Positions 995 through 58,816 are shown, counted from the first letter of the stretch. The stretch is DNA of 64,000 nt from an uncultured Acidimicrobiales bacterium (GCA_963769825.1 CAVYNO010000019.1:29852-93851), one strand, 5' to 3'. Notes: generated from the sequence alone by a model not told the origin. Numbers and translations are program-made.

Positions 995-1013
995 AGTCGA
1001 TCATCCGGCGAGC

Positions 1014-3720: not shown

Positions 3721-3771
3721 TGTCCGAAACTCAACTGTCCGAACCTCAACTGTCCGAAGCTCAACTGTCCG
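3721..3771. repeat. 15-bp perfect tandem repeat TGTCCGAANCTCAAC, 3 full units plus a 6-nt partial
   Basis: Units at 3721-3735, 3736-3750 and 3751-3765 differ only at position 9 (a, c, g). Intergenic, about 80-130 bp upstream of the sulfatase start. Confidence 0.9.
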
Positions 3772-5470: not shown

Positions 5471-5534
5471 ACGGAAAGTGACACGGAAAAGTGACACGGA
5501 AAAGTGACACGGAAAAGTGACACGGAGAAGTGAA
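5471..5534. repeat. 13-bp tandem repeat ACGGAAAAGTGAC, about 5 units
   Basis: Units at 5471-5482 (12 nt), 5483-5495, 5496-5508, 5509-5521 and 5522-5534 (two substitutions). Immediately upstream of the esterase lipoprotein start region. Confidence 0.9.
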
Positions 5535-24702: not shown

Positions 24703-24940
24703 TCTCCCGAGGCTGCAAGCCCGGACCCGCGATCGGACCGGCATTCTGTCGTTGCCAGGCCTCACGACTCTTAGCTCCCATCGGTAAGGCGCACAGCCGG
24801 CTCACACCCGCGTGCTCGATGCTCGGCCTTGGCAGCATCCACCGATCAAGGAGAAGAGACATGACCACACGCAACGGGCCGATGCCCAAGTTGAACCCCG
24901 GGAAGCTTCACCCTCCGAAGTACCCCGGCCCCGGCACGGA

Positions 24941-31514: not shown

Positions 31515-33128
31515 TCAGGCTATGGGTTTGAGCCGCGACCGGCCCTGTGCCGGAATCTTCTGGCGACGGGGGAGAGTGAACGACGCGGCGGGCTTACTGC
31601 CGGCTTCGAGGAGGTCGGCTGTCGTGCACTCACCATCCTGGCCAGGCGGCGAGGCGGTGATCAAGGGACCGACTGGTGGTCCGCTGGTGCTGTCAGAGGT
31701 GCTCGGCAACCTCGGGATCTTCGTGATCGGCGCCCCGAGCGACGCGAGCGAGGAGGCGAGGTCGCCGGTCTGAGAGCGTCGCCAGGCGGAGATGTTGGGG
31801 GCGGTGACGCTGAACAATGTCTCCAGGAACCGCAACTGGGAGGTGTGGTCGAACGTCTCCGAGCTGACGTAGCCGCCGGCCGAGAATGGCGACACGACCA
31901 GCATGGGTACCCGGACGCCGAGCCCCAGCGGTCCCGTGATCCCACCGACTCCGGCCGGGAGAGGATTGACGGTCAGGTATTCGCCTGCAGTACCGGCCGG
32001 CGCTAAGGGCGGTGGGAGGTGGTCGAAGAACCCGTCGTTCTCGTCGTACATGATGAACAGAACGGTGCTGGCCCACACCTGGGGGTTCGAGAGAAGCGTG
32101 TCGAGGATCTGCTGGGTGTACCACTCGCCCAAAGCGGGCGGAGCCGGCGGGTGCTCGTCGTAAGTATCCGGAGACATGATCCACGAGACCTGGGGCAGGG
32201 TGTTGTTGGCCACGTCGGCGGCGAAGTCGCTCTGGTTGGGGTTGGTGCTGGTGAGACCGCCCGTGACATTGGGACCGTAGTAGTTGAAGGCGTTCTGGTA
32301 GAGCGGCGACGACGGGTTGGAGACGTATTGATTGAAGTAGAGCAGGACGTTCTTGTTGATGAACAGCGGGCTGCCCGGCTGGTAGAGCGATCCATACGGG
32401 TTGTAGCACTTCCAGGTGATCCCATTGGCCTGCAGCACCTCAGGCATGGTTTCCCACGAGCATGTGCCTTGCACCGGGCCCTGTTCCGAAGCGGTATCCC
32501 AGACCGGACCTCCGGCGACACCTGCCGGATCCATCGTTCCGGTCAATGACATGAGCCGGTTGGGATGGGTGGGGCCGAGGATCGAGCAGTAGTAGTGGTC
32601 GCAGATGGTGAACTTCTCAGCGAGGTCGTGGTAGAAGGGCAGGTCGCCCTTTTTGTAGTAACCCATGGTGTCGATACCGAGGGCGCCTTCATATCGGCTC
32701 GAGGTATGGGTGGACACGAAACTGTCCATGGCTCCGTTGTTGACGGAGTCGTGCTCGGCAACCCATGAGTGATCGAGGTCGTAGGTGCACTCGGCTTGCT
32801 TGCGGGTGTCCATGTGAAACGGGAGCAGCGTCGATTGCTGGCCTCCCGGCCACGACTGGGTGAAGGCACCGCGATTGGTGGCATCGTCATAACCGGCCAC
32901 GCCACCCAAGGTCCCGAAGTAGTGGTCGAACGACCGGTTCTCCTGCATCAGGAAGACCACGTGCTTGACCGCTCCCAGATCACTGCCGGCAGCTTTCACC
33001 GCCGCTGCCCGCTCGACAGTGGTGGGCCCGGTGGAGCGCACGTGGCCCAGTCGCGCCATGCCGAGGGCAGCCGCACCTCCGATGCCACCGGCCAGTATCT
33101 GCCTGCGGTTGAACACTGCGTCTGACAT
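31515..33128 (-). CDS. Tat-exported phosphoesterase-family enzyme (non-hemolytic phospholipase C / acid phosphatase type)
   Basis: ORF 31515..33167 with ATG at 33128. Twin-arginine signal MSDAVFNRRQILAGGIGGAAALGMA. VKHVVFLMQENRSFDHYFGTL is the phosphoesterase signature. Confidence 0.85.
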   Translation of the reverse strand: MSDAVFNRRQILAGGIGGAAALGMARLGHVRSTGPTTVERAAAVKAAGSDLGAVKHVVFLMQENRSFDHYFGTLGGVAGYDDATNRGAFTQSWPGGQQSTLLPFHMDTRKQAECTYDLDHSWVAEHDSVNNGAMDSFVSTHTSSRYEGALGIDTMGYYKKGDLPFYHDLAEKFTICDHYYCSILGPTHPNRLMSLTGTMDPAGVAGGPVWDTASEQGPVQGTCSWETMPEVLQANGITWKCYNPYGSLYQPGSPLFINKNVLLYFNQYVSNPSSPLYQNAFNYYGPNVTGGLTSTNPNQSDFAADVANNTLPQVSWIMSPDTYDEHPPAPPALGEWYTQQILDTLLSNPQVWASTVLFIMYDENDGFFDHLPPPLAPAGTAGEYLTVNPLPAGVGGITGPLGLGVRVPMLVVSPFSAGGYVSSETFDHTSQLRFLETLFSVTAPNISAWRRSQTGDLASSLASLGAPITKIPRLPSTSDSTSGPPVGPLITASPPGQDGECTTADLLEAGSKPAASFTLPRRQKIPAQGRSRLKPIA

Positions 33129-33253
33129 GGTCCCCCAAATGCGACGGCTCGGAGTCGCCTGCACCAACCCTAATCAACTGTCAGGAATGGTGCCGATTCT
33201 GGATCGTCTCCGATTCTGAACCAGCTCTCGAGGTCCTTCCTCTGACGACATCA

Positions 33254-33345
33254 GCGCCTGGGCCGAGGAGCGCCGGGCCGAGGAGCGCGGGGCCGAGGAA
33301 GCGCCGGGCCGAGGAAGCGCCGGGCCGAGGCGCGCCGGGCCGAGG
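33254..33345. repeat. GC-rich 15-16-bp tandem repeat GCGCCGGGCCGAGGA(A), 6 units
   Basis: Units start at 33254, 33270, 33285, 33301, 33317 and 33332. The array lies 126-217 bp upstream of the PLC start, in the ~750-bp divergent region between the PLC gene and the Tad operon. Confidence 0.9.
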
Positions 33346-33773
33346 GTGGCAATTCGGGCCAACGCGCCCGCAGAACTCCGACCACGCATCGTGGTCGGAC
33401 TGGTGCTCTATGTCACCGGGAATCCTCCGGGAAGCGGACCTTGGTTTCGTCGCTCCGCGAACGTGGAGCAAGGGGGAACCGGTGACCGTGCCGGTGTCAA
33501 CACCGTGGGCAACAGCCTGGTATGCGGCACGACGGCCCATCTGGGCTCTCACTGATCGCAGAGCCGGAAATCTCAGTCGTACCAACGAGAAATTGGGTAG
33601 CCGCCGGAAGCGCTGAAGAGTGAGACATGTCGACAAACGGTTCGGTGCAAGGTATTGACCAAGGCCCCGGCAAGGTCGTGGCTTCACACTGGACCGGTGC
33701 TCGTTGGACCGCGTTGTGACGGCGACGATCGCCGCGTCGTGCACCCGACCGCGGCGAGAAATGAACAAAGTAG

Positions 33774-33790
33774 TTGCACAGGGTGTGCAA
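33774..33790. promoter_or_regulatory. Perfect palindrome TTGCACA-GGG-TGTGCAA, candidate operator upstream of the Tad-type operon
   Basis: 7-bp arms at 33774-33780 and 33784-33790, about 92 bp upstream of GTG 33882. It sits in a locally AT-richer stretch. Confidence 0.3.
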
Positions 33791-33881
33791 TCAATCTTGC
33801 GTCGAATCTAGGTCGCTCTTATCGTCCGCCCCTCATGATTCGGCACCGCATCGATGGGCCCGTCACGTATGGGCAGGGAGT

Positions 33882-34820
33882 GTGAGGCGATCAGTGCGGC
33901 GCGGCGTGAGGATTGCGGCCATGGTGGCAGGGGTGGGGCCACTCCTCGTTCTCACCGCAGGCCCTTCGTCGGGCTCGGCCTCGGGCGGAGAAGGTCCTGG
34001 TGGCACCGTCACTGTCGGGGCTTCCGCGGGAGCATCATCGGGCGGTAGTCCCGGCAACCCCGCTGGACCAGGTGGGTCCAGCGGCGCCAATAGCGGGTCG
34101 GGTGGTTCTCCGTGGTCTTGCACGTACATGCCGCTCGGGCTCAACGATCAAGCTCTTCCACCCGGTGGTCCGACGCCCGGGGGCTGGTACTCGATGACCT
34201 GCAACGAAACCGATACGGGTGCTTCTTTTAACCGGACGCTGTGGATCTCCGCCCAGACACCCTCGCCGTCCTTGCCGACCGTCGATCCGCGTGCGCTCGC
34301 CCTCCAAGCGGAGCGATCGCTCCAACTCCCGAGGCCGGCGGTTCACTTCAATCCGCCGGGTTCGTCGGTCGTGAATCTCCCGACCTGGCTCTGGATCGAC
34401 GGTTCGATATGGCACCCGTATTCGGTCACCGCTACTGCGGGGTCTGTAACCGCCACCGCGGTAGCCACGCCGACCTTCGTCACCTGGACGATGGGGGACG
34501 GCAGCGTCGTGAACTGCGATGGTCCCGGAATGCCGTTCGATGTCTCAAGGCCGGCGGCTCAGCAGACGTCCTCGTGTGACTACGTCTATCGAATTACGTC
34601 GGCGGATCAGCGCACACCTGATGACAACCCCGACGACGCGGCATTTGGCGTGCTGGCATCGGTCTCCTGGGCCGTGGAGTGGTCAGCTCAGGGTGCACCG
34701 GGCGGTGGTGCCCTCCCCACGTTGACCACGTCGACGTTGACCGGGCTTCGGGTCGAGCAGGTGGAGAGCATCTTCGGGGCCGCTCTCGGTCCGACCTTCA
34801 CTGGAACAGCAGAGCAGTGA
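33882..34820 (+). CDS. Secreted protein of unknown function, first gene of the Tad-type operon
   Basis: ORF 33774..34820. GTG 33882 follows GGGCAGGGAG. N-terminus VRRSVRRGVRIAAMVAGVGPLLVLTAG, then a Gly/Ser/Pro-rich linker and a ~230-aa domain (…VVNLPTWLWIDGSIW…SSCDYVY…). I could not assign the domain. Confidence 0.6.
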   Translation: MRRSVRRGVRIAAMVAGVGPLLVLTAGPSSGSASGGEGPGGTVTVGASAGASSGGSPGNPAGPGGSSGANSGSGGSPWSCTYMPLGLNDQALPPGGPTPGGWYSMTCNETDTGASFNRTLWISAQTPSPSLPTVDPRALALQAERSLQLPRPAVHFNPPGSSVVNLPTWLWIDGSIWHPYSVTATAGSVTATAVATPTFVTWTMGDGSVVNCDGPGMPFDVSRPAAQQTSSCDYVYRITSADQRTPDDNPDDAAFGVLASVSWAVEWSAQGAPGGGALPTLTTSTLTGLRVEQVESIFGAALGPTFTGTAEQ

Positions 34821-35632
34821 CGTCAATCCTTGACCGGTCGTCGCCTCATGACCAACCTCGCCTGGACCTGGCGAATACGGCCCGGCTGCCACTCGTGCCC
34901 AGTGGTAGGAGGCCACTGATGATGGTCCTGTCCGCATTGCTGGTCTTCGTCAGCATCGCCGCATTCGCCAGCATCTATGTCAGGGCAAACCACAAACAAT
35001 CGGTCCTGATCGTCACGCAGACGATCGAGCAGGGTCAGCAAATCAATGGAGCCGATCTCGGATCGGTCAGCGTGTCGGCCTCCGGAGGGGCTCACCTGAT
35101 CCCGGTTACCGATGCTCAACTGCTCTCCGGACGGCGGGCTGCGGTCACCATCCCGTCCGGCTCACTGCTGGTGATGGCTGACACGACGACTGCACGAGCC
35201 ATCTCCCCAGGCGATGCCGTCGTCGGGGTGGCCTTGAAGGCAGGTCAACTTCCGTCGAGCGGTGTGGTTTCGGGGGAAACGGTGATGATCGTCGAGACCG
35301 GCGCTCCCGGGAGCCCTGTGACATCACCTGTCCAATCCTCGAGTGGCTCAGTGGGCGCAAGCTCGGGCTCGAGCTCACTGAGTGCCGGCGTCCCCGTACT
35401 CGTACCCCGCGCAACGGTGTTCGATGTTCAACCCGGATCCGGCGGGTCGAGCGGGTCCTCCGGGCTGGTCGCTCCGAGCGCGGCCCCCGACGCCGTACTG
35501 GTGTCCGTCGAAGTGTCGGACACGGACGCCCCCCTGGTGGCAACCGCTGCTGCCGTGGGTCAGGTCAGCCTGGTGCTCCTTACAGCCGGGTCGGGCGGTG
35601 GCGGCAGCACCACGGGGAACGGGCCGTCATGA
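34817..35632 (+). CDS. CpaB/RcpC-like (SAF-domain) Flp pilus assembly protein
   Basis: GTG 34817 overlaps the upstream stop (GTGA) in ORF 34679..35632. One N-terminal TM (MMVLSALLVFVSIAAFASIYV), then QTIEQGQQINGADL...IPSGSLLV (SAF-like) and a Ser/Gly-rich tail. Confidence 0.6.
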   Translation: MTSILDRSSPHDQPRLDLANTARLPLVPSGRRPLMMVLSALLVFVSIAAFASIYVRANHKQSVLIVTQTIEQGQQINGADLGSVSVSASGGAHLIPVTDAQLLSGRRAAVTIPSGSLLVMADTTTARAISPGDAVVGVALKAGQLPSSGVVSGETVMIVETGAPGSPVTSPVQSSSGSVGASSGSSSLSAGVPVLVPRATVFDVQPGSGGSSGSSGLVAPSAAPDAVLVSVEVSDTDAPLVATAAAVGQVSLVLLTAGSGGGGSTTGNGPS

Positions 35633-36576
35633 CCGTTGTCTCGTTCACTTCGGTAAAGGGGGCTCCGGGAGTCACCACCCTTTCCTGCCTTGTGTCGGCG
35701 GCTTGGCCAAGCGACCGGCGCGCGCTGCTCGTCGAAGGTGATCCGAGCGGTGGGGACCTGGCTGCGCGATTCCGGCTGTCTGCCAAGCGAGGGTGGCCCT
35801 CGTACGCCGCAGTATCCCGTCGGCTCGAGGGGCTGGAACCCATCTCCGCACACGTCCAGCAGCTCCCCGGGGGCCTGGACGTCATGGTGCGTGGGAGCTC
35901 CGACGAGCCGACTGAGAACCGTGAGGTTGTTCTGTCGCTGTTGGCGAGTGCCGAGCGCGACGAGGCAGGGAGGCGGGACGTGATCGCCGACATCGGCCGG
36001 TTGCTGCCAGGACAGCGAGGCGCCGAGCCGTGGCTCGAGCGGTCGACCACGGTCGCAGTCGTAGTGCGCCGCGACGCGGCCTCGATCCTCCATCTCCGTG
36101 ACCGCGCGATTGTGCTCCAATCCGGCTGTCGCGGCTGTGTTGGAATCGTGGTCGTTGGATCGGGACCGTTCTCTGCCCGGGACATCGAAGCGTTCACCGG
36201 GCTTCCTGTATTGGGTGAACTGCCCGACGATCCCAAGGCTGCGGAGATCGTTGGCGGTCGGGCTGGTTGCGGCTCTCGGTTGTCGCGGTCGCGGCTTGTC
36301 ATGTCCGCCTACCGGCTCGCCAACGTTCTCAGCGGCGAAGACCCGCTACTAGGGCAGTGCCCGGAGCAACCGGGCGGCGCCTCTCGAGCCTCGGCACCGC
36401 CGAGAACTGCAGAGGGGACTCTCTCGCAGGAGAATCCGAAAGATCGGTGGGAGCCGAGTGGGTCCGAGCGGACTAAGCAGCGTAAGGGGATGAGCCGGAC
36501 CATCCGCCGATCTCTCGACCGCTCGATCGCAGCAGGCCGATGGGTTCACGAGGCCGGAGGGAGGGCGCTCCGGTGA
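35629..36576 (+). CDS. TadZ/CpaE-like ParA-fold protein with a degenerate Walker A
   Basis: ORF 35629..36576, ATGA overlap. VVSFTSVKGAPGVTTLS replaces KGGxGK[ST]. ...VVVRRDAASI...VVGSGPFSARDIEAFTGLPVLGELPDDPKAA is a ParA/MinD-like layout. Confidence 0.6.
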   Translation: MTVVSFTSVKGAPGVTTLSCLVSAAWPSDRRALLVEGDPSGGDLAARFRLSAKRGWPSYAAVSRRLEGLEPISAHVQQLPGGLDVMVRGSSDEPTENREVVLSLLASAERDEAGRRDVIADIGRLLPGQRGAEPWLERSTTVAVVVRRDAASILHLRDRAIVLQSGCRGCVGIVVVGSGPFSARDIEAFTGLPVLGELPDDPKAAEIVGGRAGCGSRLSRSRLVMSAYRLANVLSGEDPLLGQCPEQPGGASRASAPPRTAEGTLSQENPKDRWEPSGSERTKQRKGMSRTIRRSLDRSIAAGRWVHEAGGRALR

Positions 36577-37991
36577 CGGACATCATCGCTATGGCCATCC
36601 GGGAGCGTGTGGCCGAAGATCTGGCCTCGCCGGCAGCAGCCGCCCTTATTGGCGACGACCGCCGCGAATACGCGCGCCGGCAGATCTTCGCCCACCTCGA
36701 CATGCTCACTGCTGAAGCCGAGCACGGGTGGGGCAGGTCCGAAAGCGGCGACGAGCAGCTGGCCCAGGAGGCCGAGCAGCACCTGGCTCAAGGGGTGCTG
36801 GATGCCTTGTTCGGGATGGGGCGGCTCCAGTCGTTGATCGATGACCCCGACATCGAGAACATCGATATCAATGGGTGCGACCGGGTATGGGCAACATTTG
36901 CCGATGGTTCGAAACGGATGATGCCCGCCGTGGCCGACAGCGACGAGGAGCTGATCGGTCTGGTGCGCTCCGCTGCCAGCCGGTTCGGCCTTTCCGAGCG
37001 GCGATTCGATTTGGCCCGACCCGAGTTGGACCTCCGCCTCAATGACGGCAGTCGCCTCTCGGCACTGATGGCGGTCACGGCGCGACCGGCCATTTCCATC
37101 CGCCGCCACCGGCTCTCGGACCTCTCGCTGTCCGATCTCAGGGCATTGGGCTCAATCGACCACGGCCTCGAATCCCTGCTCCATTCGGCCGTCCTCGCCC
37201 GGAAGAACATCATCGTCTCGGGGGCGATGAATTCTGGGAAGACAACCCTGCTCCGGGCACTCGCGTCCGAGATCCCACCCCGCGAGCGGTTGGTAACGAT
37301 CGAGCAGGCGTTTGAACTCGGACTGGACACCCCTGCACACCGCCACCCGGACATGGTTGCACTCGAGGCTCGGCAGGCCAACATGGAGGGTGCCGGCATG
37401 ATCTCCGTGGCTGATCTGGTCCGGCGCTCACTTCGCATGAATGCCGATCGGGTGATCGTGGGTGAGGTCCTTGGCGACGAGGTGCTACCCATGCTCAATG
37501 CCATGAGCCAGGGTCGATCGGGCTCGATGTGCACCATCCATGCCGATTCGTCCGCTGGTGTCTTCCGACGGATCGCCTCGTACGCGGTCCAAGCACCGGA
37601 GGGATTGCCTCTCGAGGCGAGCAACCTGTTGGTTGCCGGCGCCGTCCACTTTGTCGTGCATCTCGATTCCGATCTGCACGGATCGATGGATCGGACCGAA
37701 TTTCACGTTCAGGACTCGATCCATGATGAGGACTCCTTCGAGAGAGTCGACGATCGGGTGCAACGTGGGGAGCAGCGCTTCGGGGCGGGGGCGGCCCGGG
37801 CCAGATACATCGCGTCCGTTCGCGAGGTGGTCGACGCCGAGGGGATGCACGTCATCTCCAATGAGATCTATAGACCTGGTCCTGACGGCCGAGCTCGGGC
37901 TGCCTCGCCATTACAGCCCGCGACGCTCCGAGAGTTGACCACGTTCGGCTACGAACCGGCCGGCCCCGGCTTCCTCGACACTCGGGCATGA
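36573..37991 (+). CDS. tadA: TadA/CpaF secretion ATPase
   Basis: ORF 36540..37991. GTG 36573 overlaps the upstream stop and follows GGAGGGAGGG. DIENIDINGCDRVW, Walker A GAMNSGKTTLL, RVIVGEV (Walker B), and SGSMCTIHADS (His box). Confidence 0.9.
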   Translation: MTDIIAMAIRERVAEDLASPAAAALIGDDRREYARRQIFAHLDMLTAEAEHGWGRSESGDEQLAQEAEQHLAQGVLDALFGMGRLQSLIDDPDIENIDINGCDRVWATFADGSKRMMPAVADSDEELIGLVRSAASRFGLSERRFDLARPELDLRLNDGSRLSALMAVTARPAISIRRHRLSDLSLSDLRALGSIDHGLESLLHSAVLARKNIIVSGAMNSGKTTLLRALASEIPPRERLVTIEQAFELGLDTPAHRHPDMVALEARQANMEGAGMISVADLVRRSLRMNADRVIVGEVLGDEVLPMLNAMSQGRSGSMCTIHADSSAGVFRRIASYAVQAPEGLPLEASNLLVAGAVHFVVHLDSDLHGSMDRTEFHVQDSIHDEDSFERVDDRVQRGEQRFGAGAARARYIASVREVVDAEGMHVISNEIYRPGPDGRARAASPLQPATLRELTTFGYEPAGPGFLDTRA

Positions 37992-38839
37992 TTTCCGCTC
38001 CTGCCCTGTTGTGGAGCATTTGCTTCGGGCTCGGTGTTGTCGGGATAGCGGCCTCGTGGTCGAAGCCGTCCTCACGGCCACCGCCCGGACAGGCTGGCTC
38101 CCGCGTCGGCGCGCACGTTCGGACGAGGCTTCCGCGCCTCGGACTTGGGGTTGCCACCGGCGCGGTGGCCCTGCTGGTCACCGGCTGGCCCGCCGCCCTC
38201 CTGGTGGGCGGGGTGGCCGCGTACGGGGTTCCCATTCTCGTCAGCCGGACCTCGGGGTCGGTCTCGATCACCAAGATTGAAGCCATCGCCACCTGGACCG
38301 AGATGCTCCAGGGCACGCTTGCCGCTTCGGCGGGGCTGGGGGAGGCGATCATCGCCACTTCCTCCCTGAGTCCCCCGGTGATCAGGGGCGCGACTGTACG
38401 ACTCGCTGCCCGGCTGCGCTCGGGCATGCACCCTGGTGAGGCCTTGGTCCAGTACGCCGACGAACTAGACGACCCGTGTGCCGACCGTGTGGTGTGCGCG
38501 CTGGTGTTGGCCGTCTCCTCGCGTGTCCAACGGTTGGGCGATCTGCTAATGGCGTTGGCCGACTCGACCAGGGAGGAGGTGGCACTGCGACTGCGCGTTG
38601 AGGCCTCTCGAGCTTCGGTACGGAGCAGCGTGCGTACCGTTGTCGTGTTTTCGATCACGTTCGGCGCCGGGCTGACCCTCCTTGGTCACCGCTATCTGGC
38701 ACCGTTCGGCACAGGCCGAGGACAGCTCGTACTGCTCCTGGTCGGAGCGCTGTACGCGGCGGGCCTGAGTCTGATGACCTCGTTAGCCCGACCGCCGGCG
38801 CCCATCCGCTTGATCGGCGATGGGGCGGCGAGACGATGA
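37988..38839 (+). CDS. tadB: TadB-like type II secretion system F-family membrane protein
   Basis: ORF 37988..38839, ATGA overlap. TM segments flank a cytoplasmic T2SSF-like region (ATWTEMLQGTLAASAGLGEAI...). Confidence 0.72.
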   Translation: MISAPALLWSICFGLGVVGIAASWSKPSSRPPPGQAGSRVGAHVRTRLPRLGLGVATGAVALLVTGWPAALLVGGVAAYGVPILVSRTSGSVSITKIEAIATWTEMLQGTLAASAGLGEAIIATSSLSPPVIRGATVRLAARLRSGMHPGEALVQYADELDDPCADRVVCALVLAVSSRVQRLGDLLMALADSTREEVALRLRVEASRASVRSSVRTVVVFSITFGAGLTLLGHRYLAPFGTGRGQLVLLLVGALYAAGLSLMTSLARPPAPIRLIGDGAARR

Positions 38840-39814
38840 GCGTCGCCATCGCCATCGGGGCCCTGGTCGGGGTCGGTTGCATCGGAATGCTCCGGGGCCT
38901 CAGGACGGAGAGGCCCACGCTTGAGGCCATCGCCGCCGCCCTCGATCGTTGGTCGGATGCAGGTACTGAGCCCCATGGTCAATCCGATTCACCGAGTTCA
39001 CCCGGCTTCCTCCTTGCAACCAGCTCTCCGGTTTTGACTGGTCGGCTCGGTTTGCCACGTCCGTCCATTCGGTCCGGGAGTGTGGCGATCGTGGAGCTCA
39101 TGAACCGGTCGGCGGTCACCAAACGGTGGTGGCGGTCGCTGGGTCCCAGCTTCGCCATCACCGGGGTCTCACCCGAGCAAGTCGCCGCGAAGATGCTCGT
39201 CTTGGGCGGGACCGGTCTGCTCGCCCCGCCGTCAGCCTGGCTTATTTCAGAGATCGCCGGACTATTCCCGGTTCCTCTCGGGATACCGGCTCTCATCTCG
39301 CTCGTGGCGACCCCGTTCCTTGTGGCATTGCCCGTCATCCGCCTCGTGAGCCAAGCCCGAGAGCGACAGCACCACGCGTGCGTGGTCGTCAGCTCCTTTG
39401 TCGACTTGGTCGTTCTCAACCTGGCGGGGGGGATGGGTATCGAGAGCGCGCTGCTCGACTGCCGCTCAGGTGAGCTCGGATTGGATGGCAGAGCGAATCT
39501 CGAGATCGCTGCTGATTGCGCGGGAGGGTGGCCGACCGTCTTGGTTGGCGCTGAGCCAGTTGGGCGACGAGATCGGGGTGCCCGAGTTGGTCGAGCTATC
39601 GGCGACACTTCAACTTGCTGGCACGGAGGGATCGCGCATCCGCCAGTCGTTGAGTGCTCGTGCTATGGCCCTTCGGAGACATGAGCAGGCTGACGCCGAA
39701 ACCGCAGCCAACACGACGACCGAGCGGCTCTTCCTGCCGGGAGCGCTCCTTCTCGTCGGCTTCCTCCTCTTCGTGGGGTACCCCGCGTTCAGCCGAATTG
39801 TCGGGGGGTTCTAA
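38836..39814 (+). CDS. tadC: TadC-like type II secretion system F-family membrane protein, interrupted by a 1-nt insertion at about 39457
   Basis: ORF 38836..39684 up to ...LNLAGGMGIESALL. ORF 39398..39814 in the next frame continues TAAQVSSDWMAERISRSLLIAREGGRPSWLALSQLGDEIGVPELVEL...LFLPGALLLVGFLLFVGYPAF. Confidence 0.7.
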
Positions 39815-39880
39815 GCATCCCGCTGAATCACTTCATCGACCAGCAAGACCAATCAACAATCAAGAAGAAAGGAATTCCCA

Positions 39881-40072
39881 ATGCCCAACCAGATCGTGGC
39901 CCTCTGGACCTACCTCCGATCCCGAGCCGGAGTGTCGGGTGGATGGGATGAGACGGGAACTGTCGTCGAGAAGGTCATCCTCACTGCCATCTTCGCCGCG
40001 TTGGCCATCGCTATCGGCGCCATCATCGTAGCCAAGGTCACCGCCAAGGCGAACTCGATCAACCTCAACTGA
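39881..40072 (+). CDS. Flp-like (type IVb/Tad) prepilin candidate
   Basis: ORF 39881..40072 (63 aa), GAAAGGA RBS. Charged leader ...SGGWDETG, then TVVEKVILTAIFAALAIAIGAIIVAKV. The position between tadC and tadE matches Tad loci. Confidence 0.55.
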   Translation: MPNQIVALWTYLRSRAGVSGGWDETGTVVEKVILTAIFAALAIAIGAIIVAKVTAKANSINLN

Positions 40073-40491
40073 TGATTGGCTTTGGTGACGCTCACCTTCG
40101 CAGTGAAGTCGACCGTCGCCGAGGGGAGTGCGGCTCCGCAGCCGTCGAAACCGTCATCATCGTGCCAGTGGTCATGCTCGTCCTGGTGATCATGATCCAA
40201 ATGGTCCTGTGGGCGCACGCCGCCCAGGTCGCCCACCTTGCGGCATCAGAGGGAGCCAGGGCGGCGGTATCGGTGGGAGGTGGGGTGACCGTCGGTGCGA
40301 ACCGGGCACAGGCAGTGCTGGCGTCTTCCGGTTCGGACGTCGAGTCCCCAAACGCCTTGGCGCAGATGCTGCCCGGCGATCAGATCAGTGTGACGGTGAC
40401 CGGAAGGGCTCTGTCGCTGGTCCCCTGGCTGTCGCTCCCGGTATCTGCTACCCAAGAGGGCCCGATTCAGGAATTTCGCTCGTCCGAATGA
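40072..40491 (+). CDS. TadE-family pseudopilin-like protein
   Basis: ORF 40072..40491. RGECGSAAVETVIIVPVVMLVLVIMIQMVLW is a TadE-type N-terminus. Confidence 0.7.
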   Translation: MIGFGDAHLRSEVDRRRGECGSAAVETVIIVPVVMLVLVIMIQMVLWAHAAQVAHLAASEGARAAVSVGGGVTVGANRAQAVLASSGSDVESPNALAQMLPGDQISVTVTGRALSLVPWLSLPVSATQEGPIQEFRSSE

Positions 40492-40910
40492 AGAGGCTGG
40501 AACAAAAGGACGACCGCGGGAGCTTGACGGTTGAGCTGGTGCTACTGACGCCAGCATTGCTCATTGTCGTTCTGACCATCGTCGCGTTTGGTCGGGTCTC
40601 GGAATCGCGACAGCAGGTAGCTGAGGCGGCCGGTGCCGGCGCCGACGCTGCTGCCGTGGGTTCGGACGCCCCTCGTGCCGTCTCCGGTGCTGAGCTCGAT
40701 GCGAGAGCCGAAGTCGCCGGCCATCTACACACCTGCGGAAATCCCCAAATCGACACGGATACCAGTCACTTCTACCCCGGTGGGTTCGTGACTGTGACGG
40801 TGATCTGCCACATCGCTCTCTCGGACCTGCTCGTTCCCGGCATGCCGGGGAGCACCACCATCCAGGCGTCCTCGACCGCGCCCATCGATCCGTTCCGAGC
40901 GGTCGGATGA
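40488..40910 (+). CDS. TadE-family pseudopilin-like protein (second copy)
   Basis: ATG 40488 (ATGA overlap) inside ORF 40128..40910. DDRGSLTVELVLLTPALLIVVLTIVAFGRV. Confidence 0.65.
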   Translation: MKRLEQKDDRGSLTVELVLLTPALLIVVLTIVAFGRVSESRQQVAEAAGAGADAAAVGSDAPRAVSGAELDARAEVAGHLHTCGNPQIDTDTSHFYPGGFVTVTVICHIALSDLLVPGMPGSTTIQASSTAPIDPFRAVG

Positions 40911-41416
40911 GGGCTTTCTTCTCGTGGACCAGATCGGGCCCCATGTGGACCGCGACATGGTGCCTGGCCCGAAGGTCGGTCGGACTGATCGGCCTTCTAC
41001 GCCAGAGTCCGAAGTCCGACGACGGCTCCGTGACAGCGTTCGTCGCCCTGCTCTTGGTGGCGATGTTCGTACTCATGGGATTGGTACTCGACGGGGGAAC
41101 CGCCCTCAGCGCCCAACAGGCAGCGACCGACGAGGCCGAACAGGCAGCTCGGGCTGGAGCGGGCTCCTTGTCCGTCGATGCGCTGCGGGCCGGTTCGATC
41201 AAGATTGATCAGCAAGCAGCCGTCGCTGCCGCGGAGGCGTTCACCCTGGCGGCTGGTCACCCGGGTACGGCGACCGTCTCCGGGGACGTCATCAGGGTTG
41301 AGGTCCACTACCGCGTTCCCACCGACATCCTCAGCATGGTGGGCATCAAGTCGCTTCCGGTGTCGGCAGAGGCGACCGCATTCGACGTCGCCGGCGTCAC
41401 CTCGGGGTCTCCATGA
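40907..41416 (+). CDS. TadG-related (Tad_N-type) pilus assembly protein
   Basis: ORF 40907..41416, ATGA overlap. DDGSVTAFVALLLVAMFVLMGLVLDGG. Confidence 0.6.
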   Translation: MRAFFSWTRSGPMWTATWCLARRSVGLIGLLRQSPKSDDGSVTAFVALLLVAMFVLMGLVLDGGTALSAQQAATDEAEQAARAGAGSLSVDALRAGSIKIDQQAAVAAAEAFTLAAGHPGTATVSGDVIRVEVHYRVPTDILSMVGIKSLPVSAEATAFDVAGVTSGSP

Positions 41417-44400
41417 GATCGGGCGTTCCCACACAAAAGAACAGCCTCCGCCTGCGAGCCTGGATCTCCATTGCGGTCCTGGCACTGGTGGTCGCGGGCG
41501 TGCCTGCAATCTTGTTCGCAGTCGGAGGTTCGCCGTTCCGCCTGCTCGGACATTCGGTGGCTGGCAAAACGTTCACGTCTGCCCATCAGGCTGACGGCCT
41601 GCGACTGGCGACCCAGTGGCTGCTGCGGGGGGCGCTCGTGCTGGCGTGGCTTTCGTGGGCATGGGTGGCGGTATGCGTGGTTCTCGAGGCCCGATCATGG
41701 ATGACCGGGCATACTCCCGCTCGTCTGCCAGCGAGTCGGACCCTGCAGTCGGCGGTGGCCTGCCTGGTGGGAACGGCCTTGGCCGTGTCGTTGATGAGCC
41801 GCGGTCTGTCCGCGACCGAGAGCGTTGGGTCAACTGAGCGTGCCGTTGCGTCCTTGGGTCAGCTCCGGGTCCTCGAGGATCCGATGCCCTTCGGCGCACA
41901 CTCGCACGTTCCGGATCCACCGATGAGGTCTGACCACGGAACGATCGGCGTTGGTCACGGAGACGAGAAGACTTCCAGGCATGCGTCCTGGTCGCCGGCT
42001 GATCCAGGCCGATCCCCAGCTGAGGCCACCCGCATTCGAGACGATGTCGGTCCGGTGGCGCCAGATCCGCCCCGATCCCAAGGAGGGTCCGATCCGGGGC
42101 CCATTGTTTCGAATCCCGAGCTCCACCGGGTCGGCCCGAGGGAGACGCTTTGGTCTATCGCTATCGAGCGCCTTGGCACCGCTCGGCGTTGGAGAGAACT
42201 GGCACAACTGAATTATGGGGTCGTACAGCCGGACGGTGGCTCGTTGGATCTCGACCATTGGATCAAACCGGGCTGGACATTGCGGCTGCCGGGTGTGGAG
42301 GTCGCACACCGGGGGGCGGCGTTGGACGCAACAGCCCCGCAACGCAAGCGAGGACTCCGAGCCGGTCAGGCTGGCTACCTACTCCGAACGGATGCCGCGA
42401 TCGTGCCGGTAGCTGGCTCTGACTCCGGCAACGTCGTTCGGTCGAGTTCTGCCCGAGCTCTTGCCCGAGTCCCTGTTGTCCCCGTTGTCCCTGTTGTCCC
42501 TGTTGTCCCCGTTGTCCCCGTTGTCCCCGTCGTCCACCGATCGTCGGAGGATTCGGAGACGAAATCACCGGGTGCCTCGGACAAGGGAGACGGGGTCCAC
42601 GTGTCTGACGATCCCGATGCACCGGCCAATCCCAGACAACCCGTTGTACCTGTCGGAGCCGGCGTAGTTGGCGCGGGCGTGGCAAATCTCCTGGACCGAA
42701 TGAGACGGGCGCAGCAGCGTCACCGTCAGGGAGGTATGTACATCCCGCTGCCCGGTCCCGATCATCGGCGATTCGAGCAGCGGCTCCGCATCGGCGATGC
42801 GCAGAGCATCCCGAGGGACGTGGACCTGTCCCTGCGTCTTTTGGCCCAGTGGTGGCGTGAGACTGGTCAACGGACATCAGAGATCTCAGGAGTGATCGTC
42901 AATCCCGAGTCCATTGCAGTGATCGTTGCCGATATTGACGCCTCGGCCGATCGTCCCCCATATGTGTCCACAGGTGAGGACGGACGATCGTTGTTGCTCG
43001 ACCGGGCAGGGTTATCCGACCTCACGAATGAACCTCCTGACCTGACCCACGCAGCCGGAATGCGCGCGCCAGTACCTGCATTGGTGACCGCCGGCCACGG
43101 CGAGTCTGGAATCGTCATGATCAATCTGGAGACCGTCGGCTCACTCGCGATACGTGGGGATCAGGAGGCCTGCGACGGCTTTGTCCGGGCACTGGCATTG
43201 GAACTCGCTACCTCTTGGTGGTCAGACCAATTCGAGCTGCTGCTGGTTGGGTTCGGGGCTGAACTCGAGCGCTTCGATCGGGTGAGCGCCGAGAAGGACG
43301 TGTCGGGGCTGGTCAGGAAGCTGTGCGTCCGCCGTGTGCAGGGAAGCGAGCAATTGGAGTCATTCGGCCTCGACCGGTTCTACGAAGCACGCGGCACCAC
43401 CGGATCCGACGAATGGGACCCGATCGTGGTGGTCTGCGGCCCGGCAATGGATCCGGCCGATCTGGCGGCCCTGGTAGATGCCGCCTCGGACTCCAGGACG
43501 GGAGCCGCCATCGTCGTCTGCGGGGACGTGTCGGGTGCCACCCACCAGGTGACGCTCGACGGAGCGCAGCGCGGGGTTTGGCTCTCTGTTCTGGGCTCGA
43601 TGTTCCTGCCCCAACAGGTCGGGCCCAACGAGTTGACTTCCGCATCTTCGTTGGTGGAGACAGCGGTGAGGCGCGAGTCGGTGCTCTCGTCAGACGAGCC
43701 CTATGTCAGCCTTCCAATCGCCATGCCGGCTCCAGTCGGCAGTCAGACGGTCTCGCTACCTGCCGGCAATGGAACCCGCGATACCGACGTCAGCCGAACC
43801 AGACCCGTCAGCACCGACCGGTCGCCCGCGAACACCGGTGTCGAGGTGGCTGTCCTTGGGCCCGTCGAGATTCGGGGTGCAGATCGAGAGTTCACCAGAG
43901 CCTGGGCCAGGGAGCTGGTCGTCTACTTGGCCATGCATCCCAACGGCGCGTCGAACGACTCATGGGCCACCGCGCTGTGGCCGGACCGGGCCATGGCTCC
44001 TTCCAGTCTTCATTCCACTGCTTCGGTGGCACGCCGCGCACTTGGTCAAGCAGTTGGCGGCCAGGACCATCTACCTCGGTCGCACGGCCGGCTGCAGCTC
44101 TCGAATTCGGTGACAACCGATTGGGACCGCTTCGTGCGGCTGGCTGACTCCCCCGACCCGGAAGAGTGGCGATCGGCGCTCCAGCTGATCAGGGGTCGAC
44201 CGTTTGAAGGATTGCGGTCGACCGACTGGCCCATCCTCGAAGGAATCGGGCCGGCGATCGAAGCGGCCGTCGTCGACCTGAGCGGCCGGTTGGCCGGCGC
44301 ATACCTAGCTGCTAATCGGCCGCAGGACGCGCAGTGGGCCGCTCGCAAGGGATTGTTGGTGAGCCCGTATGACGAACGGCTGTACCGGATGCTGATGCGA

Positions 44401-44580
44401 ACGGCCGATCTCGCCGGTCATCCCGCCGGCGTCGAGTCAGTTATGGGCGAGCTCATCAGACTGGTAGCGGCCGAGGTCGAGCCGTTCGATTCGATTCATC
44501 CGGCCACGGTCGACCTGTACCGATCACTCAGCCGGCGGCGCAGTCTGGATCCGGCTGCCCGCCACGGTGGCGACCGATGA
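41413..44580 (+). CDS. Large membrane protein: N-terminal TM segments, LysM domain, (PVV)7 repeat, unassigned central domain, C-terminal SARP winged-helix + BTAD domain
   Basis: ORF 41413..44580, ATGA overlap with the TadG-like gene. TM-like AWISIAVLALVVAGVPAILFAV, ALVLAWLSWAWVAVCVVL and AVACLVGTALAVSLM. LysM: HRVGPRETLWSIAIERLGTARRWRELAQLNYG...IKPGWTLRLP. SARP/BTAD: VEVAVLGPVEIRGADREFTRAWARELVVYLAMHPNGASNDSWATALWPD...LIRGRPFEGL...SPYDERLYRMLMRTADLAGHPAGV. Confidence 0.8.
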   Translation: MRSGVPTQKNSLRLRAWISIAVLALVVAGVPAILFAVGGSPFRLLGHSVAGKTFTSAHQADGLRLATQWLLRGALVLAWLSWAWVAVCVVLEARSWMTGHTPARLPASRTLQSAVACLVGTALAVSLMSRGLSATESVGSTERAVASLGQLRVLEDPMPFGAHSHVPDPPMRSDHGTIGVGHGDEKTSRHASWSPADPGRSPAEATRIRDDVGPVAPDPPRSQGGSDPGPIVSNPELHRVGPRETLWSIAIERLGTARRWRELAQLNYGVVQPDGGSLDLDHWIKPGWTLRLPGVEVAHRGAALDATAPQRKRGLRAGQAGYLLRTDAAIVPVAGSDSGNVVRSSSARALARVPVVPVVPVVPVVPVVPVVPVVHRSSEDSETKSPGASDKGDGVHVSDDPDAPANPRQPVVPVGAGVVGAGVANLLDRMRRAQQRHRQGGMYIPLPGPDHRRFEQRLRIGDAQSIPRDVDLSLRLLAQWWRETGQRTSEISGVIVNPESIAVIVADIDASADRPPYVSTGEDGRSLLLDRAGLSDLTNEPPDLTHAAGMRAPVPALVTAGHGESGIVMINLETVGSLAIRGDQEACDGFVRALALELATSWWSDQFELLLVGFGAELERFDRVSAEKDVSGLVRKLCVRRVQGSEQLESFGLDRFYEARGTTGSDEWDPIVVVCGPAMDPADLAALVDAASDSRTGAAIVVCGDVSGATHQVTLDGAQRGVWLSVLGSMFLPQQVGPNELTSASSLVETAVRRESVLSSDEPYVSLPIAMPAPVGSQTVSLPAGNGTRDTDVSRTRPVSTDRSPANTGVEVAVLGPVEIRGADREFTRAWARELVVYLAMHPNGASNDSWATALWPDRAMAPSSLHSTASVARRALGQAVGGQDHLPRSHGRLQLSNSVTTDWDRFVRLADSPDPEEWRSALQLIRGRPFEGLRSTDWPILEGIGPAIEAAVVDLSGRLAGAYLAANRPQDAQWAARKGLLVSPYDERLYRMLMRTADLAGHPAGVESVMGELIRLVAAEVEPFDSIHPATVDLYRSLSRRRSLDPAARHGGDR
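42469..42531 (+). repeat. 9-bp in-frame tandem repeat GTCCC(T/C)GTT x7 encoding (VPV/PVV)7
   Basis: Units run from 42469 to 42531. The protein reads RVPVVPVVPVVPVVPVVPVVPVVHRS. Confidence 0.9.
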
Positions 44581-44678: not shown

Positions 44679-44725
44679 AGGCCGGGCAGAAGGCGAGAGG
44701 CCGGGCAGAAGGCGAGAGGCCGGGC
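44679..44725. repeat. 19-bp direct tandem repeat AGGCCGGGCAGAAGGCGAG x2 plus a 9-nt partial
   Basis: Copies at 44679-44697 and 44698-44716, partial at 44717-44725. Located between the convergent stops at 44580 (+) and 44744 (-). Confidence 0.85.
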
Positions 44726-44743: not shown

Positions 44744-45895
44744 TCATGGACTGGGTGCCGGCGGTGGTCGTTGGTTCCGCAGCCGGTTGTGGAAGGCGCA
44801 GAGCACGCGCCCGTTCTCCTGGACGGTGAGGCCACCGGCGGCGTGGGGCAGGATGTGGTCGACGTCGCAGTCGCAGGCCGGCCTGTCGCAGTAGGGGTGG
44901 GTGCACTCCCGATCCCGTAGTTCGATGGCCCGGCGGGTGGCCCCGGTGAACAGGCGGGCGGTGGCGCTGACCTCGACCCGGCGGTCGGGCTTGAACACGG
45001 CCCGCTCCAGATAGGCCGCATCCAGCCAGGGGAGGAGGGACCCCGGCGAGATGGCCAGGCCTTGGGCCAGCTCACAGATCCGTCCCTGGGCCGTCGACGG
45101 CCAGTCCACCAGCACGCTGAACAACGGGGCGGGGCGGCGCCCACCCTCGGGGGCGGTCCGGGAGCGGGTGGCCATCTCGACCAGGGCGTCGGCCCGGCGC
45201 TGGCCCGGGGTCCGGCTGAGCTCGCCGAGCGTCGGGTCCCGTCCGAGCGAGGTGCGGGCCGCCGCCCAGTCGGCCTCGAACAGCTCGCCCTCCAGGCGCT
45301 CGAGCTCCCCGCTGACGATGGCCCCGGCGATGGGATCGAGGGTCATCTTGCCCAGCCACAGGCCGGCGAAGCTGGCCTCGAGGTAGACCTGGCGCCGGGA
45401 GCGGCGGGCCTCGGCCTCCTCCTCGGTGCCGTCCGGGTCGGCCAGCTGCTCCCAGTAGGCGACGGCCCGGACGAAGGACTCGTAGCGCAGCGTGCGGGCC
45501 TGGTCGACCAACAGGGCCTCGTCCCGGTCGAGGGCCGCCTCGGTGGCCGGCCGACGCAGGGCGGCGATGGTGTCGACGTGGGCCCCGCTGATCTCCCCGG
45601 CCGACCAGGCCCTCGCACAGGCCGGGAGGTGGGACAGGACCCGGCCCCGGCGCACCAGCCGCCGGGCCTGGGCCTTGGGCAGCCGGCACCGGGTGGCCAA
45701 CCAGGCCGCCGAGTTGCGTGCCCCGTCGGGGGCCCACCCCTCCGAGGCGTCGAAGGCGGCAGTGGCGTTGGTGACGAAGGACTCGAGGCGGGCCAGCTCA
45801 TGCTGGAGGACCTCCATCGACTCGGCATCGCCATAGGCCGACGGGTCCATCCCGACCAGCCCATCGATTGCCGAAGAAAGGGCTTCGAGTTCCAC
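44744..45895 (-). CDS. DUF222-domain HNH endonuclease (13E12-repeat-family type)
   Basis: ORF 44744..46021. C-terminal CTHPYCDRPACDCDVDHILPHAAGGLTVQENGRVLCAFHNRLRNQ (HNH). The N-terminal DUF222-like region begins ...LEALSSAIDGLVGMDPSAYGD. GTG 45895 is preferred, though the longest ORF reaches 46021. Confidence 0.8.
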   Translation of the reverse strand: MELEALSSAIDGLVGMDPSAYGDAESMEVLQHELARLESFVTNATAAFDASEGWAPDGARNSAAWLATRCRLPKAQARRLVRRGRVLSHLPACARAWSAGEISGAHVDTIAALRRPATEAALDRDEALLVDQARTLRYESFVRAVAYWEQLADPDGTEEEAEARRSRRQVYLEASFAGLWLGKMTLDPIAGAIVSGELERLEGELFEADWAAARTSLGRDPTLGELSRTPGQRRADALVEMATRSRTAPEGGRRPAPLFSVLVDWPSTAQGRICELAQGLAISPGSLLPWLDAAYLERAVFKPDRRVEVSATARLFTGATRRAIELRDRECTHPYCDRPACDCDVDHILPHAAGGLTVQENGRVLCAFHNRLRNQRPPPAPSP

Positions 45896-46102
45896 GAGGC
45901 CCAGTCCACACCCCCGGTGTGACACCGTCGGGCAGACGGTGACGATGCGGAACGGCCACGGCAACTGCGATCCAACACCGCCAACCGATGACCGATCACA
46001 GCCGACCGTTGCACTGGTCATCGTGCCATGCCGGGCTGAGACTCGAGATCGAGTCTTTCGGACCTTCGGGCGAGTGTCGGACCCCGGGCGGAGCCCGAGA
46101 GG

Positions 46103-47421: not shown

Positions 47422-47492
47422 CTAGTTGGCAACCCAGGCCATTGCCAACTAGGGCAATTGGCAACCAGGCAATTGCCAACTAGGGCAATTAG
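47422..47492. promoter_or_regulatory. Array of alternating TTGGCAA / TTGCCAA half-sites with nested palindromes and a 31-bp direct repeat (candidate multi-site operator)
   Basis: TTGGCAA at 47426 and 47457. TTGCCAA at 47442 and 47473, giving 16/15/16-bp spacing. CTAGTTGGCAA-N9-TTGCCAACTAG is an 11-bp inverted repeat. GGCAATTGCC palindrome at 47468-47477. ATTGCCAACTAGGGCAATT occurs twice. The array lies 65-135 bp upstream of the permease ATG. Confidence 0.45.
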
Positions 47493-58754: not shown

Positions 58755-58794
58755 CTCGACAGCTCGACAGCTCGACAGCTCGACAGCTCGACAG
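58755..58794. repeat. 8-bp tandem repeat CTCGACAG x5
   Basis: Five perfect units from 58755 to 58794, followed by a partial ctcgg. Located 60-100 bp upstream of the 58855 start. Confidence 0.9.
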
Positions 58795-58816
58795 CTCGGT
58801 GCTCGGCGACCGGGGC

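Follow-up and report, generated by a model that had tools for sequence, protein, structure and literature searches.

The subject of this analysis is a Tad/Flp-type pilus locus within a 64-kb stretch of DNA (the window, in which positions are counted from the first nucleotide) from the genome of an uncultured Acidimicrobiales bacterium. The window is high-GC (62-71%), and between 33882 and 44580 every credible open reading frame (ORF) lies on the plus strand. A first-pass annotation, made from the sequence, had described eleven ORFs here that are joined by start/stop overlaps, and on re-reading all of these ORFs and junctions were found as stated. The overlaps total ten: GTGA at 33882, 34817 and 36573, ATGA at 35629, 37988, 38836, 40488, 40907 and 41413, and TGATG at 40072. 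The gene order is g1-CpaB-TadZ-TadA-TadB-TadC-Flp-TadE-TadE-TadG-LysM/BTAD, in which g1 and g11 denote the first and last ORFs, as follows:

33882..34820, plus strand: g1, Sec-secreted accessory protein of 312 aa (signal peptide, family alignments, AlphaFold2 model)
34817..35632, plus strand: g2, CpaB/RcpC-like protein with an N-terminal transmembrane (TM) helix and a SAF domain (Pfam SAF)
35629..36576, plus strand: g3, TadZ/Ssd-like protein of the ParA/MinD fold with a degenerate Walker A motif, KGAPGVTT (TIGR03815)
36573..37991, plus strand: g4, TadA/CpaF-type secretion ATPase (Pfam T2SSE, E 2.2e-27)
37988..38839, plus strand: TadB platform protein (Pfam T2SSF, E 2.8e-9)
38836..39814, plus strand: TadC platform protein, split by a +1 frameshift due to an extra base in the interval 39452-39465
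39881..40072, plus strand: Flp-like prepilin of 63 aa (size, position, hydrophobic core)
40072..40491, plus strand: TadE-type pseudopilin 1, motif G/SAAVET (Pfam TadE, E 3e-11)
40488..40910, plus strand: TadE-type pseudopilin 2, motif G/SLTVEL (Pfam TadE, E 4e-9)
40907..41416, plus strand: TadG-like pilin-like protein (N-terminal Pfam Tad domain, PF13400, E 7e-7)
41413..44580, plus strand: g11, membrane protein of 1055 aa (AlphaFold2 model, Foldseek, LysM profile match)

The earlier view of a Tad/Flp-type operon of the monoderm kind is upheld. Pfam and NCBIfam support its proposed core through matches to SAF (g2), T2SSE (TadA), T2SSF (TadB), TadE (twice) and the N-terminal Tad domain of the TadG-like product, with the reservation that TadC is not a single ORF. 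The SAF domain of g2 scores 22.7 bits against a Pfam cut-off of 21, and the matches of g2 to RcpC and to TIGR03177 (pilus_cpaB) fall under the cut-off. No Pfam match was returned for g3, which matches Ssd, an NCBIfam family of actinobacterial TadZ-like proteins (TIGR03815), at E 6e-12, also under the cut-off; the position of the TadZ-like gene between the CpaB-like gene and tadA is kept in related loci. TadA has an intact Walker A motif (GAMNSGKT) and is 60-87% identical across related loci, and its best NCBIfam match, TIGR03819, reaches 228 bits against a cut-off of 373. Two paralogous T2SSF platform proteins are present, TadC being so after repair of one base. The second TadE-type pseudopilin has a weak match to TIGR03816 (the Rv3654c family). 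A strong ribosome-binding site (AAAGGAA) lies ahead of the Flp gene at 39881. The Flp leader ends in an invariant Gly, and the mature part is the 37-residue sequence TVVEKVILTAIFAALAIAIGAIIVAKVTAKANSINLN. Across 76 related loci this product is near-invariant, with the Gly followed by (T/S)VVE(K/T)VILTAIFAALAI...NSINLN.

An A24 prepilin peptidase (TadV/CpaA) was found neither in the 64-kb window nor within 10 kb of the 82 related loci described below, and no secretin (RcpA/CpaC) was found among the larger window ORFs scanned with Pfam. The Pfam scan covered all window ORFs with at least three predicted TM segments and most ORFs of approximately 400 aa or more. Searches by tblastn with two A24 queries gave no match in the window or in the 82 loci; their sensitivity is low, hence the backing by Pfam. 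The claim that the window contains neither protein thus holds at the level tested (Pfam for both and tblastn for A24). The lack of a secretin is expected, because a monoderm envelope has no outer membrane, and lack of tadV has been described as typical of actinobacterial tad loci (PMC4322843).

Related loci were collected by scanning genomes with the g1 alignment, one genome per species. Out of 142 loci recovered in this way 80 were retained, and the addition of two metagenome loci gave a set of 82. The titles of the 80 loci name nearly all of them as Acidimicrobiales or Acidimicrobiaceae, and a few only as Actinomycetota, Actinomycetes or "bacterium". When the window proteins were used as tblastn queries, all components from g1 to g11 were found in the same order and on one strand in 72 of the 82 loci; in the remaining ten the series breaks off or changes where a contig ends. 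Since 72 of 82 independent loci repeat the whole set without a change of order, its co-linearity is far beyond chance. The suggestion that the first and last genes co-occur with tadA was therefore borne out, as both are kept beside tad genes in these 72 loci and also on plasmids. By this comparison of gene content and order, g1 and g11 are obligate companions of tadA in the module and constant members of it.

The surroundings of the locus are conserved as well. Upstream, an ABC-F gene is present in 69 of the 82 loci, and ABC-F together with two further genes in 61-69 loci; downstream, a luciferase-like gene is conserved. No conjugation genes were found within 10 kb of the locus in Acidimicrobiales. 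Because these flanks are syntenic across the order, the locus occupies a fixed chromosomal site and is vertically inherited, and the same synteny rules out the candidate explanation of a recent genomic island. As a separate observation, two loci, L002 (16471-18241) and L013 (beyond 16500), have lost the operon after the first TadE gene, a short distance from where the contig ends. In L002 the genes that follow are unrelated, lie on the minus strand and include one with HTH_26. The two breaks could reflect either real rearrangement or chimeric assembly.

The module also occurs outside the order. In PLSDB, tblastn detected relatives of g1 on 104 plasmids and those of g11 on 177, with hosts that are mostly Streptomyces but also include Micrococcus, Curtobacterium and Cutibacterium; g11 homologues lie on four Cutibacterium plasmids. 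The gene content of the Streptomyces, Embleya, Curtobacterium and Micrococcus plasmid modules is given here as in the RefSeq annotation. On the plasmids of Streptomyces NBC_01243 and Embleya, the order is that of the window with one further gene at the front (g0, approximately 170-200 aa, ahead of g1), which makes a 12-gene series: g0-g1-SAF-TadZ-TadA-TadB-TadC-Flp-TadE-TadE-TadG-LysM/BTAD. A rearranged version is seen in Sinomonas and on Curtobacterium pC1c, where g0 and g1 come after tadG and directly ahead of g11, still inside the locus. Identity between the plasmid modules and the window is approximately 25-42% for g1 and approximately 30% for g11. Distant g11 homologues in tad loci were found in Sinomonas, in a Limnocylindria (Chloroflexota) contig and in a further Tad-bearing contig (L085). 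The Limnocylindria homologue stands beside TadE and Tad genes, with an A24 peptidase gene and then TcpC/TcpE/VirB4/TrbL-type genes. In Streptomyces, Curtobacterium and Limnocylindria a prepilin peptidase gene adjoins g11, unlike in the window, and the plasmid modules have relaxase or conjugation genes close by, whereas the window locus has none.

We consider it likely that the window carries a chromosomal, vertically inherited copy of a Tad/Flp (type IVc) pilus module that comprises 11-12 genes and is common to the chromosomes and plasmids of Actinomycetota. The first-pass annotation had called the first and last genes candidate new parts of an actinobacterial Tad machine. This was overstated, as both families are annotated on plasmids and a "LysM, BTAD" ORF was listed in 2013 after three TadE ORFs in the tad locus (PAGK_2360-2370) of the C. 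acnes plasmid pIMPLE-HL096PA1 (PMC3666418). The order in C. acnes is SAF/RcpC-like, TadZ-like, TadA, two TadB/C, a small unknown ORF (Flp), three TadE and LysM/BTAD (PMC3666418). For the plasmid system of C. acnes (linear plasmids pIMPLE-HL096PA1, p15.1.R1 and p09-9), a pilin subunit and cell appendages have been detected (PMC5696575). The C. acnes tad locus is plasmid-borne beside FtsK-, VirB4- and TcpC-like conjugation genes, in contrast to the chromosomal, fixed site of the window locus.

The product of g1 opens with a Sec signal peptide, after which a Gly/Ser-rich linker leads to an all-beta domain of approximately 200 residues, in which family alignments reveal four conserved Cys and many conserved Trp. 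The AlphaFold2 model is all-beta, and its predicted local distance difference test score (pLDDT) exceeds 90 over most of residues 100-290. Neither g1 nor its plasmid relatives match any Pfam or NCBIfam family, in agreement with the earlier statement that the first gene could not be placed, and a Foldseek search of the model against the PDB gave nothing better than E 0.013, with template modelling (TM) scores below 0.2. The family is large (4148 cluster representatives at 50% identity, E <= 1e-3), and its members always sit in a tad locus where the surroundings were examined; RefSeq labels the plasmid relatives "ATP/GTP-binding protein". Homologues of both g1 and g11 are almost all from metagenome-assembled genomes of Acidimicrobiales and carry generic names only. 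We infer that g1 is an extracytoplasmic part of the machine, structural or wall-related.

The last gene had been described as a membrane protein with LysM and SARP/BTAD domains. The LysM domain stands, and the winged helix-turn-helix (wHTH) with BTAD is predicted from the structure model, but a large FtsK/TcpA-like domain between them had been missed. The anatomy of g11 is as follows:

Residues 9-131: TM helices 1-3 (AlphaFold2 model)
Residues 236-293: external LysM domain (profile match to TsaP)
Linker: disordered and extracytoplasmic, with a PVV repeat encoded at nucleotides 42469-42535 (9-bp repeat, 7.4 copies)
Residues 410-440: Gly-zipper helix, read as TM helix 4, and after it an invariant basic stretch (family alignment)
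Residues 441-760: FtsK/TcpA-like degenerate P-loop domain (Foldseek)
Residues 806-902: SARP-like wHTH (Foldseek matches to AfsR and EmbR)
Residues 903-1045: BTAD (Foldseek matches to AfsR and EmbR)

The g11 family profile matches the LysM domain of TsaP at E 9.6e-9, along with other LysM chains. The secondary structure expected of LysM is seen at 237-291 of the AlphaFold2 model, and homologues carry PF01476; the window protein by itself gave no Pfam LysM match at E 0.1 or better. In Foldseek, the middle domain matches the conjugation coupling protein TcpA (6o1y, E 1e-6), the FtsK motor (6t8o, E 4e-6) and EccC/EssC (E 1e-3), a fold assignment that is made on an AlphaFold2 model with pLDDT above 90 in that domain. 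The equivalent of Walker A in the family is G-(D/E)-x3-(E/D)-G-(V/L) and that of Walker B is V-V-x-C-G-P; the conserved Lys, Ser/Thr or Asp-Glu of these motifs was found in none of 121 aligned g11 sequences. Since Walker A and B are missing across the family, the domain is, as judged from the alignment, a pseudo-ATPase and not a functional FtsK-type member. The wHTH-BTAD module superposes on DNA-bound AfsR (8hvr_I, E 4.7e-6, target-normalised TM score 0.68) and on EmbR. Mean identity to the window protein is 76% for the wHTH, 70% for BTAD, 39% for the FtsK-like domain and approximately 20% for the linkers, which vary widely in length and sequence between homologues. The four-part architecture is retained by five distant homologues, from Curtobacterium, Streptomyces, Sinomonas, Embleya and Limnocylindria, which the profile matches over their whole length.

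In its general plan g11 resembles ToxR and TcpP, which likewise join a membrane-tethered DNA-binding wHTH to an extracytoplasmic sensor or anchor domain. It differs from ToxR, TcpP, CadC, AfsR and EmbR in its reversed domain order: the four TM helices come first and the wHTH is C-terminal. Its P-loop domain is of FtsK type and degenerate, in contrast to the NB-ARC domain of large SARPs.

The operon had been thought to start with the 312-aa gene. This is probably not the case, as a conserved start codon at 33835 precedes g1 and opens a 16-codon remnant of g0. The region upstream of g1 has these features:

33774..33790, no strand assigned: operator-like palindrome TTGCACAGGGTGTGCAA (6-N5-6), conserved upstream of the operon
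33797-33802, plus strand: -35-like hexamer TTGCGT (conservation)
33803-33819, plus strand: 17-nt spacer between the -35-like and -10-like hexamers
33820-33825, plus strand: -10-like hexamer TATCGT (conservation)
33835..33885, plus strand: 16-codon mini-ORF, MIRHRIDGPVTYGQGV and stop, the g0 remnant (conserved start codon)

The palindrome is unique in the window, even when two mismatches are allowed. The exact form TTGCAC-N5-GTGCAA is present as a single copy in 33 of the 82 loci, in every case ahead of the operon, and forms matching at least 10 of the 12 positions occur in 65 of 82 loci as compared with 3 of 76 control segments. Promoter-like hexamers, TTGC... and TA(T/G)(C/G)GT, are kept in position beside the palindrome across loci, and from this conservation we infer a promoter at 33797..33825. 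A scan for consensus promoters and terminators gave nothing above chance and did not call this element. The conserved ATG at 33835 lies 9 nt past the -10-like hexamer, a spacing at which the start is probably leaderless. Depending on the genome, this codon opens g0 (approximately 195-247 aa), g1 directly, or a remnant of 16-54 codons. The g0 product has a hydrophobic N-terminus, and the gene was found by BLAST in 50 of the 82 related loci. In the window the TGA of the mini-ORF overlaps the GTG of g1, and the same GTGA arrangement is present in the closest relative (L003). The only DNA-binding domain encoded in the operon is that of g11, and no other regulator gene linked to the locus was found.

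Two candidates in the same region were rejected. A 76-aa ORF (33655-33885) was considered as a twelfth gene; it has no family match, lies mostly upstream of the conserved promoter and is conserved in L003 only, as intergenic DNA, while its last 16 codons (from the ATG at 33835) are kept as the mini-ORF. A 15-bp tandem repeat of six copies (AGCGCCGGGCCGAGG, 33253-33345), approximately 540 bp upstream of the operon, was considered as a direct-repeat site of the SARP type and set aside because similar intergenic minisatellites are abundant in the window and the motif is not conserved in L003. In Curtobacterium pC1c (L086, 4814-4830), a different perfect palindrome, TTGCGCAACAAGCGCAA, precedes by approximately 155 bp the ParA gene with which the Tad module of that plasmid begins.

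The first-pass annotation had read tadC as one ORF and did not mention a frameshift. Because tadC is frameshifted, the operon is not intact as it was read. The frame that opens at 38836 ends at a stop at 39684 after a nonsense tail, and the Pfam T2SSF match is restricted to a second frame, 39398-39814. Alignment to L003, whose TadC is intact, places an extra base in CTGCTCGAC; removal of any one base in 39452-39465 restores a TadC of 325 aa that ends at 39814. The statement that the only gap in the operon is one of 66 bp before the pilin gene is correct for the repaired tadC but not for tadC as sequenced. Elsewhere in the window, a gene at 840-3011 (plus strand) encodes a secreted-looking protein of 723 aa that has no Pfam match and closes with a 126-bp (42-aa) repeat present in 5.5 copies (2279-2972). 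The third copy can be read in another frame only, which amounts to a compensating frameshift pair and suggests indel errors in the assembly. Because the same assembly carries this pair, an assembly indel error in tadC is at least as likely as a real mutation.

Under our reading of the locus as a member of the Tad/Flp module, the operon would be transcribed from the conserved promoter flanked by a dedicated palindromic operator and translated as one coupled chain from the probably leaderless codon. The Flp prepilin would first be cut by a prepilin peptidase encoded elsewhere in the genome, and the 37-residue pilin would then be polymerised on the TadB/TadC platform, powered by TadA. Passage through the wall and attachment to it would be served, in place of a secretin, by g1, by a lipoprotein-like g0 where present and by the LysM domain of g11. 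As to the role of g11, the reading that we prefer, at somewhat less than even odds, is that it is a peptidoglycan-tethered, membrane-bound regulator of the SARP type, since it has the sole DNA-binding domain in the operon, the operator is dedicated to the locus and the wHTH is its best conserved part. Its wHTH would bind the operator of the operon, and the FtsK-like pseudo-ATPase domain would act as an oligomerisation or docking module towards TadA/TadZ. In this way g11 would couple tad transcription to the condition of the machine or of the wall, after the fashion of ToxR/TcpP. A more inclusive proposal, which we regard as doubtful, is that g0, g1 and g11 form a hitherto unrecognised, monoderm-specific envelope and control module of Tad pili that replaces secretin, TadD and RcpB. 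In it, g1 (with the g0 lipoprotein where present) would be a wall-spanning or wall-remodelling part, and g11 would represent a new class of one-component regulator, LysM-tethered, docked to TadA/TadZ by an FtsK-derived pseudo-ATPase ring and bound to the tad operator by its membrane-tethered SARP domain. Pilus assembly or wall contact would then feed back directly on transcription or, in the plasmid versions, on DNA handling.

Several observations weigh against our main reading. The operon has a lower GC content at third codon positions than its neighbours (0.70-0.77 as compared with 0.85-0.90), and, with tadC frameshifted, a functional pilus in this genome is only putative. No pilin model in Pfam or NCBIfam matches the Flp-like protein, and the sequence after its Gly, TVVEKVILTAIFAAL, has Glu at +4 and not at the canonical +5, and no Tyr. 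The BTAD match of g11 is below threshold in Pfam (18.8 bits against a cut-off of 22.1); some homologues carry PF03704. Phmmer searches of the SARP-like and FtsK-like domains against the PDB were empty, with no sequence-level match to any solved SARP, and both assignments depend on predicted structure. Classical SARPs bind direct repeats overlapping the -35 element, whereas the conserved site has the form of an inverted repeat, which is atypical for SARPs, and lies immediately ahead of the -35-like hexamer; for this reason the binding of g11 at the palindrome is a guess. The palindrome is missing from the plasmid modules, which keep g11. Finally, we found no papers on the function of g1 or g11 and no experiments on g0, g1 or g11 in any organism.

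The protein g11 can also be read in two other ways. One, which we judge unlikely, is that the module serves primarily for the transfer or uptake of DNA, as a mating or competence pilus, and not for adhesion, with g11 as its DNA-handling membrane component. In combining TM helices with an FtsK/TcpA-like ring and a wHTH, g11 recalls FtsK, TraB of Streptomyces and TcpA, the coupling protein of pCW3; TcpA and FtsK are the top structural matches of its middle domain. VirB4/TcpC/TrbL-type or relaxase genes adjoin the plasmid and Limnocylindria copies, and the nearest NCBIfam model to TadA is now named "TadA family conjugal transfer-associated ATPase". However, the window TadA falls under the cut-off of that model (TIGR03819), the loss of both Walker motifs throughout the family means that g11 cannot be a motor, and the Acidimicrobiales locus is chromosomal and at a fixed site, with no conjugation genes within 10 kb. 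Natural transformation of Micrococcus luteus requires Tad pili, but the competence clusters described there end at tadG, with no mention of a LysM/BTAD gene (PMC4322843). Of similarly low probability is the idea that g11 is purely structural, a peptidoglycan anchor or alignment scaffold in the role of TsaP/FimV, whose SARP- and FtsK-like domains contact TadA, TadZ or the platform while an unlinked regulator serves the operator. This would agree with the match of its LysM domain to that of TsaP, with the TPR-like fold of BTAD, with the atypical palindromic site and with the retention of g11 in plasmid modules that have no palindrome. The ATGA coupling of g11 to the pseudopilin genes would also ensure that it is made in step with structural parts. 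A scaffold accounts poorly, however, for a wHTH that is the best conserved domain of g11 and that superposes on DNA-bound AfsR, and for a locus to which no other regulator gene is linked.

Least probable, in our view, is that the cluster is decaying into pseudogenes, with a real frameshift in tadC, 16 codons left of g0 and no working pilus. In favour of this, the frameshift site is not a long homopolymer, and g0 is lost in the window and in its closest relatives. Against it, the remaining genes are intact with their coupling overlaps kept, the Flp pilin is nearly identical to those of relatives, and the compensating pair at 840-3011 points to indel errors in assembly. Moreover, the g0-less layout with GTGA coupling is shared by L003, which is an independent assembly. 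A vertically inherited Tad/Flp module is the reading that we prefer, in which the window itself is mostly ordinary, being one more member of the module with, possibly, a sequencing error in tadC.

Classical diderm Tad/Cpa systems (Aggregatibacter flp-tadV-rcpCAB-tadZABCDEFG and Caulobacter cpaA-L) have in common with the window the ATPase, two platform proteins, CpaB/RcpC-like and TadZ-like proteins, a small Flp pilin and TadE/F/G-like minor pilins. The window differs from them in that it lacks the secretin (RcpA/CpaC), RcpB, TadD and an in-locus TadV, has a pilin motif of G/TVVEK in place of G/XXXXEY, and has the additional genes g1 and g11. The window proteins also match families of the Mycobacterium tuberculosis type weakly, namely Ssd (TIGR03815) and Rv3654c (TIGR03816), all under the curated cut-offs. 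To our knowledge, no LysM/BTAD or g1-type gene has been described in the M. tuberculosis Rv3654c-Rv3660c locus, and the same applies to the tad-1/tad-2 competence loci of M. luteus.

The presence of a LysM/BTAD ORF in an actinobacterial tad locus was already known, and the module was annotated but functionally unexplored. Novel here are the domain anatomy of g11, the description of g1 as an all-beta secreted family, and the conserved region of palindrome, promoter and start codon. These touch on the question of how, without an outer membrane or secretin, a Tad pilus passes through a thick wall and is held there. Comparative surveys leave many actinobacterial systems as "generic" (PMC6668835), and one widespread actinobacterial Tad module can now be said always to carry the same uncharacterised proteins, with a domain anatomy and a candidate operator. 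Close architectural copies are found on plasmids of culturable, tractable Streptomyces, Micrococcus and Curtobacterium and of the clinically relevant C. acnes. Because copies sit in tractable hosts, the roles of g1 and of the LysM-FtsK-SARP protein are directly testable.

The genes around the operon are metabolic or housekeeping in character and include those for a phosphoesterase, ABC-F, a luciferase-like monooxygenase, a permease and a DUF222 protein. The phosphoesterase-family gene (31515-33167, minus strand) separates the conserved ABC-F gene from the operon, and the DUF222 gene (44744-46021, minus strand) does the same for the conserved luciferase-like gene. In one related locus (L001) both are lacking at the corresponding positions. 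Because tblastn matched the phosphoesterase in just two related loci and the DUF222 gene in none, the two look like lineage-specific insertions adjoining the locus. A GAF-GGDEF diguanylate cyclase gene (23665-24702, plus strand) is located 9 kb upstream of the operon, and control of Tad pili by cyclic di-GMP is known in other bacteria. Between 14000 and 24000 the GC content falls to 62-64%, with few ORFs that are confident by third-position GC; among the products encoded in this stretch, possibly a variable region, are a DUF2516 protein and small hypothetical proteins that are secreted or membrane-bound.

Tandem repeats are frequent in the intergenic DNA of the window. Beside the 15-bp array upstream of the operon, a 19-bp unit is repeated 2.5 times just downstream of it (44679-44725), and arrays with periods of 8-22 bp also occur at 3721-3771, 5471-5533, 47426-47490, 58755-58798 and elsewhere. 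Together these look like a genome-wide minisatellite habit. A longer repeat at 25102-25624, composed of 1.9 copies of a 276-bp unit at 97% identity plus a 15/30-bp repeat, lies within a Pro/Gly-rich ORF (24802-25611, minus strand). Short direct tandem repeats were likewise observed in the spacer between tadC and flp in six related loci (L008, L025, L029, L037, L043 and L020), for example CCAACAGAGACGTA in six copies in L008 and an 11-bp unit in four copies in L025; their sequence differs between loci and is not conserved.

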